This document shows positions 30,019 to 30,860 of a stretch of DNA of 64,000 nucleotides, piece by piece. The position numbers and the translations under genes were made by a program. Source of the stretch: Heterodontus francisci (Eukaryota); assembly GCF_036365525.1 (NCBI RefSeq), contig NC_090401.1:31207036-31271035 (forward strand), given 5' to 3'. Numbering within the stretch: position 1 is the first letter of the stretch; each line of letters opens with the position of its first letter. The notes under the pieces were generated by a model. It had not been told where the DNA came from, did not search any database, and saw nothing but the letters and a program-made list of their open reading frames with translations.

Positions 30019-30346
30019 TTGCAGTAAACCTTGGGTGCGGCCTCATCGCTGAAAAGGAACACAGTCGGGCCCTCACTCCCTGGTCCCAGAGAGGACAGCG
30101 CCAGCCATCGCCTCCAACGTCGCACAAGTCACGACCCAATTAACAAAAATACAAATGGAAATACACTGGTGTTTTATAATAAACTGGTGTGTACTTACAC
30201 TATCATTTTCATAATAATCACTTTTTAAAAAATCAATCTGCCGAACTATTGAATCACTATATCAAATTTATCTTAAATATTTATATCTACCTTCAATTTT
30301 AAATATTAAATCTTATCTTACATATGAAATATACCTATTATAATTT

Positions 30347-30712
30347 TTTTTCCACAATTCAAAATGATTTATTGATTCATTACAGCATAAAGTATAGAAT
30401 AAACGTTCCTTGGTATCCTCCCATCTTCATTTCATCATGTTAAACGTCTTAACCACCAACAATAATGTTATTAATGTGGATGAGCTTCACAAAGAAACCG
30501 ATGAATCCCATAATAGCAAATCCAATAGCTGTTGCCATGGCAATCTTTTGAAATTCTTTCCTGGCTTTGTACATCTTTTCACAAGTCTGATCGAATCCTT
30601 CACAAACTGGCGGCTGGGCTCCACAAACTGCATTACTTGATCCATTGCGTCCTGTTTTCTCTATCTCTCCTACTGGGAAGACAAAACTCTTTAGCCGCTG
30701 ACGTTGCACAGT
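30347..30712 (-). pseudogene. SEC61G: SEC61G (Sec61 gamma) processed pseudogene
   Basis: Intronless. ATG at 30645 gives [28 protein letters not shown], then a frameshift, then [37 protein letters not shown] (stop 30449, two codons missing). UTRs, AATAAA near 30370, a short A tail and an 18-bp TSD are present. Confidence 0.95.
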
Positions 30713-30718
30713 ATATAC

Positions 30719-30860
30719 CTGTTATAATTTACACTTTATCCAATGCTGATCAGCAGCTGTTCTCGAATGGCAACAGAAGCGGCTGTGCAGATTATATGTA
30801 AACTGAAAGAAGTCCGCTGGGCCCTAATGCTCAATGGGTTCAATTCATTCAAGTTCCAAT
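30719..30860 (-). promoter_or_regulatory. Putative promoter and non-coding first exon of gene B
   Basis: TATA-like tataat at about 30791-30796 and donor cag|gtatat at 30718. Homologous to 6596-6671, with the same TATA-to-donor spacing of about 80 nt. Confidence 0.6.

Follow-up and report, generated by a model that had tools for sequence, protein, structure and literature searches.

A SEC61G retrocopy between two copies of the inferred first splice donor of an IFI27/ISG12-family gene in Heterodontus francisci: probably a spliced-out passenger

The window (the whole stretch of 64,000 nucleotides that was analysed) carries on its minus strand a gene, gene B, that matches PF06140 (Ifi-6-16) at 85.3 bits against a cut-off of 29.1 and whose relatives are named IFI27-like. 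The domain lies in an open four-exon frame, with exons 2–4 intact and in phase: exon 2 (20986-20929, start codon at 20965), exon 3 (13446-13285, carrying the Ifi-6-16 domain) and exon 4 (12876-12683, located by tblastn, carrying the stop codon and an AATAAA at 12716, with a predicted 3' end near 12685). The putative exon 1 (30719-30766, minus strand) is non-coding, about 48 nt long and free of ATG; it was placed by homology to loci L009-L017, with its start set at TATA+30. Upstream of it, within 30791-30809 on the same strand, are a TATA-like box (30796-30791) and an imperfect motif (30800-30809) which we take to be IRF-element-like. A 35-nt block through this motif is identical in four paralogues, which at 5% divergence is not significant by itself. 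Upstream promoter homology between gene B and a second family member, gene A, reaches 30863 and is lost in the four duplicates of gene B.

A search with PF06140 gave 12 matches, all in a single cluster on contig C31; three lie in the window or touch it. The left part of the window (1-30832) belongs to a recent tandem array that continues leftwards (G000:C31:31059850-31237867), with units of 32–34 kb that contain two IFI27/ISG12 genes each and are more than 99% identical to one another; two variants of the units are present in the contigs of one sample. Window positions 1-23229 are 97.7–99.8% identical to the four units to the left, each of which consists of one gene-B-type and one gene-A-type gene, and the left end of the array is 89–98% alike with the interior. 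Exon 2 is 100% identical in all five copies of gene B, while across exons 2–4 one duplicate is identical to gene B and the others differ by 2–3 bases. Intron 1 of gene B is 9.7 kb long compared with 2.8 kb in the duplicates and carries about 7 kb more insertions. It includes a Gypsy-like LTR element (23565-28372, antisense to the gene, LTRs 86% alike) which the duplicates lack, apparently through loss of the stretch between two related repeats. A third, more divergent Ifi-6-16 gene, gene C, lies at 44336-44575; its exon-1 homologue was searched for and not found. A LINE with long open frames occupies 55584-57841; over 631 nt it shares 93% of its letters with another copy, which lies immediately to the right of the window.

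An intronless SEC61G copy of 359 nt (30712-30354) lies on the minus strand, directly behind exon 1 and, as the first-pass annotation had stated, in the same sense as the gene B exons; it begins 84 nt after the start of the TATAAT at 30796, close to the distance of about 80 nt originally given. Its identity as a SEC61G retrocopy was confirmed by a protein match to the Pfam SecE/Sec61-gamma family (E 3.3e-6, in a frame other than the 52-codon frame described below) and by a search of the 6.0-Gb source genome, in which it resolved into four abutting pieces matching four separate parent exons at 94–100%. The parent spreads these exons over 15 kb on another contig (G000:C2:143227675-143242472); all of its introns are absent from the copy, which begins inside parent exon 1 right behind the pyrimidine tract. 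The seven matches in the source genome comprised the window, the four parent exons and two other retrocopies. One of the latter (L002, G000:C9:95987805-95988148) has an intact 68-aa frame in which four residues are changed, shows a TSD-like repeat of 8 bp and contains 18 nt of 3' UTR that are missing from the present parent; the other (L006, G000:C25:74596825-74596914) is a 90-nt exon-2 fragment with an A run, inside a scattered repeat.

Compared with the present parent, the retrocopy has four substitutions, a 4-nt deletion behind 30560 that shifts the frame after codon 28 and a 6-nt deletion behind 30473 that is in-frame, both deletions sitting at 3-nt microhomologies. Its first ATG (30645) has a strong start context and opens the frame of about 52 aa that had been proposed earlier (30645-30487, minus strand), which consists of Sec61-gamma residues 1–28 and 24 frameshifted residues and contains no membrane anchor. 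The parental AATAAA, expected near 30370, is located at 30373-30368, 346 nt into intron 1 from the upstream donor. It is followed at 30353-30347 by two non-parental G's and a tail of five A's (eight if those of the target-site duplication are counted), the GG/A end falling about 14–16 nt past the hexamer, and the downstream element of the parent is absent. Since L002 stops 24 nt after the equivalent hexamer position, the AATAAA is the true poly(A) signal of the parent. Contigs of run X3, from a related organism, share the letter of the retrocopy at two of the four substitutions (30387 and 30355), leaving only two on the retrocopy side; X3 differs from retrocopy and parent alike at seven more 5'-UTR positions and by a 3-nt indel, and the insertion was probably later than the split from this organism. 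A frameshift and an in-frame deletion set against only two retrocopy-side substitutions argue against a conserved protein. To judge from its letters, the retrocopy is on every feature tested (loss of introns, TSD with an empty site, A tail, disabled frame) a young, frameshifted processed pseudogene.

The retrocopy is flanked by 18-mers at 30329-30346 and 30713-30730 that are identical at 17 of 18 positions, with identity extending no further; because the first three A's are ambiguous with the tail, the target-site duplication (TSD) measures 15–18 bp. On both strands of the 64-kb window these are the only two sites within two mismatches of the 18-mer, and the chance of such a match is about 1e-9 to 6e-8 per site, depending on the base composition assumed. 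The upstream copy (30713-30730, minus strand) comprises the final 12 nt of exon 1 together with the donor CAG/GTATAT, with the intron starting at 30718, while the downstream copy (30329-30346) reads TAG/GTATAT, a decayed donor from which an intron would begin at 30334; the claim that the TSD duplicates the donor therefore stands. As the duplicates of gene B have CAG/GTATAT and the gene A set has CAG/GTAATA, the C is ancestral and it is the downstream copy that has mutated. A third candidate donor, AAG/GTAGATAT at 30290 (30283-30293, minus strand), has C instead of the +1 G in the paralogues. An older tandem duplication of about 44 bp of the donor region is visible at 30247-30337, the GT at 30290 being a leftover of it that is dead in the duplicates. 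By a simple crude count over 11 positions against the U1-complementary consensus, the upstream donor scores 8/11 (equal to the duplicates), the downstream donor 7/11 and the 30290 site 8/11; the upstream and downstream donors are both weak, being without +4A and +5G.

The empty site, with one copy of the target sequence, that had been predicted for orthologues was found in all four type-matched paralogous duplicates (L009-L012; 197 kb of sequence compared). In these the homologue of 30713-30832 runs straight into that of 30334-30017, with a single CAG/GTATAT and no retrocopy. A more distant exon-1 homologue, with CAG/GTAATA, is present in gene A and in its four copies. Compared with the duplicates, gene B shows 15 differences in the 113 bases of promoter plus exon 1 and 17 in 318 bases at the start of the intron; the last 34 aligned exon-1 bases show ten differences (binomial probability about 8e-6 against the intron rate), far more than the 5% of the intron. 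Homology to the four duplicates ends on the right at 30832, where the duplicates go on into a LINE fragment; their promoter breaks off about 25 bp above the IRF-like motif, where this CR1-like fragment takes over. That the duplicates took their promoter from a further old paralogue, on the left side of the array, was considered and rejected, as no such exon 1 occurs in the stretch compared and the junction is with the LINE fragment. We read the array as an older duplication bounded on the right at 30832, followed by recent unequal crossing-over that would have homogenised the interior. The retrocopy would then have landed later, in the terminal copy and about 100 bp from the 30832 limit, a position that would explain its presence in one copy only.

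Thirteen sequencing runs, none recorded as RNA, overlap 30300-30900, and four of them were compared on 30150-30950; these are assembled contigs from at most two samples (X1, X2 and X7 being one sample), and their RNA origin is a guess. One X1 contig bridges the exon 2/3 junction of parent SEC61G with no extra letters. In X1, X2 and X7 (three of the four runs) a contig matches 30754-30832, with 30 flanking letters on either side that match the duplicates. Beyond 30754 there are 451 letters in X1 and 454 in X2, equal to 40+58+162+191/194 for the remainder of exon 1 and exons 2, 3 and 4, which puts the 3' end 25–28 nt past the exon-4 AATAAA if the 20986 acceptor is assumed, or about 40 nt past it with an acceptor 14 nt further on. 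Together with the exon-1 match, this length fits a spliced mRNA that uses the homologous donor, of the duplicates rather than of gene B, and supports the placement of gene B exon 1 from 30719 onward, which the first-pass annotation had assumed, as probably correct. The same contigs extend 42–123 letters past 30832 into the LINE fragment of the duplicates, so that we only infer the start near 30766. SEC61G-like contigs have the parent's letters at the diagnostic sites. In the contigs of the four runs, which drop rare forms and show presence rather than absence, none covered 30717-30743 or 30150-30338 (silence of gene B is not implied), none joined exon 1 to the retrocopy, and neither of the two diagnostic deletions occurred in the form seen in the window.

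We consider it somewhat more probable than not (about 0.55) that the retrocopy is a largely spliced-out, near-neutral passenger in intron 1 of gene B. A SEC61G processed pseudogene would have been pasted by target-primed reverse transcription, in sense, into the last bases of the inferred exon 1 of one copy, and the 15–18-bp TSD would have rebuilt the donor upstream of it, leaving exon 1 intact, so that the retrocopy would leave with intron 1 in most transcripts. From its sequence we infer that the cap-proximal upstream donor would win, as it retains the ancestral CAG and pairs better with U1. U1 binding at 30718, and again at 30334, 34 nt beyond the hexamer, would keep the poly(A) signal of the retrocopy largely inactive. 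U1 is described as blocking widespread first-intron termination and poly(A) signals (PMC7471841). In the first intron of gene A, four native poly(A) hexamers lie no more than 820 nt from a 7/11 donor, which indicates that such hexamers are common here. Because the end of the duplicated unit is about 100 bp away, the insertion would have difficulty spreading to the other copies, and these would buffer any loss.

The first-pass annotation had proposed three transcripts from one promoter: the normal mRNA, a form in which donor 30334 retains the retrocopy in the 5' UTR, and a short RNA ended by its AATAAA. Such a three-isoform arrangement is possible. Messages with a stop more than 50–55 nt ahead of a junction are marked for decay. 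Leakage through donor 30334 would produce an RNA in which 11 upstream ATGs occur and a stop lies 152 nt ahead of the junction; it would be untranslated and, by the 50–55-nt rule, a substrate for decay. Leakage to the poly(A) signal would give the 52-aa peptide, with no membrane anchor. Two further products were rejected: a fusion reading from the retrocopy frame into exon 2, as none of the 11 retrocopy ATGs stays open to the second donor, and internal exonisation through acceptors in the retrocopy 5' UTR, for which the resulting introns would be only about 46–62 nt. The further suggestion, that an antiviral gene is attenuated, is weakened by the unequal donors, by the expected U1 suppression of first-intron poly(A) signals and by the involvement of one of five copies; since the retrocopy is likely spliced out mostly, any effect on antiviral defence would be small.

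As to the enzyme behind the insertion, the odds are about even between a U2-targeting Tx1-type LINE of the source genome and a generic L1-type element. The lead towards Tx1 is an 11-mer at 30740-30730 (minus strand), lying within the divergent last 34 bases of exon 1, that ends at the TSD edge and matches nt 25–35 of U2 snRNA at 10 of 11 positions, the comparison sequence being a U2 gene from the source genome. It is the only 10/11 match of this kind in the window and places the 3' junction of the retrocopy at U2-equivalent nt 35–38; with the start at TATA+30, the TSD edge falls at +36 to +39 and the donor at +48. The equivalent site in the duplicates scores 6. Keno and Utopia are described as having U2 from nt 39 as their 3' flank (PMC4640811), and the source genome holds a comparable element, with a poly(A) tail that meets U2 nt 39 in 204 exact junctions, a 3' end that is matched exactly 3442 times, an APE+RT frame of 1136 aa and copies 89–100% alike, so that a young APE-type U2-targeting element exists there, its clade being named from the descriptions in the papers. 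U2 arrays (G000:C41:6.28-9.25 Mb; L079-L097, L128) are heavily filled with the Tx1-type LINE, some copies lying head to tail on U2 nt 39. The retrocopy TSD of 15–18 bp falls within the 7–20 bp seen in the family, and in 28 of 30 U2-junction copies TTTTGG precedes the A tail, an end of which the retrocopy shares the GG-A, though with two letters only (1 in 16). A template switch from the 3' end of the Tx1 element would explain this end; such a mechanism has been described for LINE-1 chimeras (10.1101/2025.02.02.635956). Like Keno (PMC4640811, PMC4494074), the element of the source genome combines APE and RT with a U2 nt 39 3' flank; unlike Keno, the cargo here is a host mRNA, the site is not a U2 gene and the likeness ends at the nick, so involvement of the element is only suggested.

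That a generic L1-type machinery simply hit an AT-rich site, with the U2 likeness and the GG arising by coincidence, is only a little short of even in our estimation. Among 30 dispersed Tx1 loci, 15 were without a 5' junction inside the locus and 6 without a TSD; all nine resolved insertions match U2 25–35 at only 4–6 of 11, like background, so U2 likeness is not typical of Tx1 off-target sites. The likeness is poor across the nick, the GG comprises two letters, and the site GT/AAAT is close to the L1 consensus. Coincidence is harder to reconcile with a generous in-register test, in which only 9 of 9838 positions in the window, and 5 of the 3562 that are AT-rich, reached 10/11 (about 1e-3, and post hoc), as well as with the abundance of the Tx1 family, its TSD lengths and its TTTTGG-A end. 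A preference of the family for splice donors was rejected: two of the nine resolved sites (L115 and L118) have a TSD starting at a donor-like GTAA, and that of L115 looks coincidental, its motif being antisense to a transposon-like coding frame.

Whichever enzyme acted, the passenger reading has to be weighed against a strong promoter trap, in which a large share of gene B transcripts would end at the retrocopy poly(A) signal or use the second donor, yielding an inducible RNA of the SEC61G pseudogene and attenuating the gene copy; we regard this as improbable, at roughly one chance in five. In its favour, the retrocopy lies in sense downstream of the host promoter and a 5' exon (placed by homology to the duplicates), a genuine hexamer sits 346 nt into an intron that is 9.7 kb long here and 2.8 kb in the duplicates, the donors are weak, the third donor at 30290 scores 8/11, and no poly(A) hexamer was found in the first kilobase of intron 1 of the duplicates. 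Host-promoter use by intronic retrocopies has been described in 13 human and 14 mouse cases (PMC4772013). Yet the upstream donor is intact and better matched while its downstream copy has decayed, the downstream element of the parent was not brought along and a second U1 site probably lies where such an element would act, and, even if the trap works, one of five copies is affected.

Equally doubtful is the view that the promoter and exon 1 of gene B are silent or decaying, with expression coming from the four duplicates and the geometry without consequence. The ten differences in the last 34 exon-1 bases, against 17 of 318 in the adjacent intron, and the roughly 7 kb of extra insertions in intron 1 would suit a decaying copy, but the 35-nt IRF-like block has stayed identical to the duplicates (for what that is worth at 5% divergence), a TATA-like box is present and promoter homology to gene A is kept to 30863.

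Less likely still is a combination of Tx1 targeting and trapping: a Tx1 LINE would have delivered a host mRNA in sense 36–39 nt behind the start of an interferon-type promoter, as in its U2 target, where an exon 1 of only about 48 nt means that the TSD necessarily duplicated the first donor, and the resulting inducible trap would lower the output of this gene copy while the four duplicates carry the load. A selected functional retrogene or regulatory peptide is very improbable: the strong start context at 30645 and the position behind an inducible-type promoter are its assets, but the frameshift after residue 28 deletes the membrane anchor and the copy is young and single.

The retrocopy taken as a spliced-out passenger compares readily with known systems. 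Processed pseudogenes made by target-primed reverse transcription have TSDs of 5–20 nt (PMC4151081, PMC5470649), and like them the retrocopy is intronless, near its parent mRNA, A-tailed and bounded by a TSD in this range; unlike the usual case, its TSD spans a host donor on both sides and two non-parental G's precede a very short tail. Similar to the TMF1 retrocopy in CYBB intron 1 (PMC4151081), it lies in the first intron of an immune gene and may disturb splicing. The TMF1 copy is antisense and exonised by its own acceptor and donor, whereas the SEC61G copy lies in sense directly against exon 1 and brings another candidate donor and a poly(A) signal. The Cenpw retrocopy in Poc1a exon 8 of the chagun mouse (PMC4619696) is likewise a processed cDNA with TSDs in a host exon and changes splicing; there a coding exon is hit, with exon skipping and a phenotype, whereas here a non-coding first exon would have its donor restored by the TSD. 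The piggyback retrocopies of Carelli et al. (PMC4772013) share the sense orientation downstream of a host promoter and 5' exon; these are spliced onto host exons, in contrast to the direct read-through from exon 1 predicted here.

The host gene also invites comparison with a well-known fusion. TRIMCyp is a CypA retrocopy in the antiviral, interferon-induced TRIM5 and makes a selected fusion protein. The SEC61G copy resembles it as a housekeeping-gene retrocopy inside a putatively interferon-induced gene, whose promoter shows an imperfect IRF-like motif; unlike TRIMCyp, it has a shifted frame, and none of its ATGs opens a frame that reaches exon 2.

A literature search, covering for the most part papers outside subscription, gave no direct report of a TSD duplicating a splice donor or first splice donor. 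Assuming 1000 retrocopies inserted at random into a genome with 2e5 donors and 2e4 first donors, at 10 placements per donor, the computed expectation per genome is 0.17 for a sense TSD over any donor and 0.017 over a first donor. Cartilaginous fishes are described as rich in retrocopies, with 14,081 in the surveyed genomes (10.64898/2026.06.26.734816). The geometry is uncommon, not extraordinary, and less uncommon if insertion favours promoters. Beyond what the first-pass annotation had described, the analysis adds the tandem array, the 30290 site as a third candidate donor and a possible origin of the insertion through Tx1.

If the insertion is an ordinary one, the locus would be a natural example of a TSD making an exonic insertion harmless by rebuilding the donor, and the four empty-site paralogues would serve as controls for donor competition and for the suppression of poly(A) use by U1. 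With a working trap, the dose of one IFI27-type gene would be altered; a major virus-resistance QTL of sea bass is described as resulting from regulatory variants in a cluster of five IFI27L2 copies (PMC11899128), which indicates that dose can matter in fish. If the Tx1 link is true, a site-preferring LINE would place host retrocopies right behind promoters, against the usual picture of random landing, and, should the trap work as well, promoter-proximal Tx1 targeting may be a general way in which sense promoter-trap retrocopies arise in sharks.
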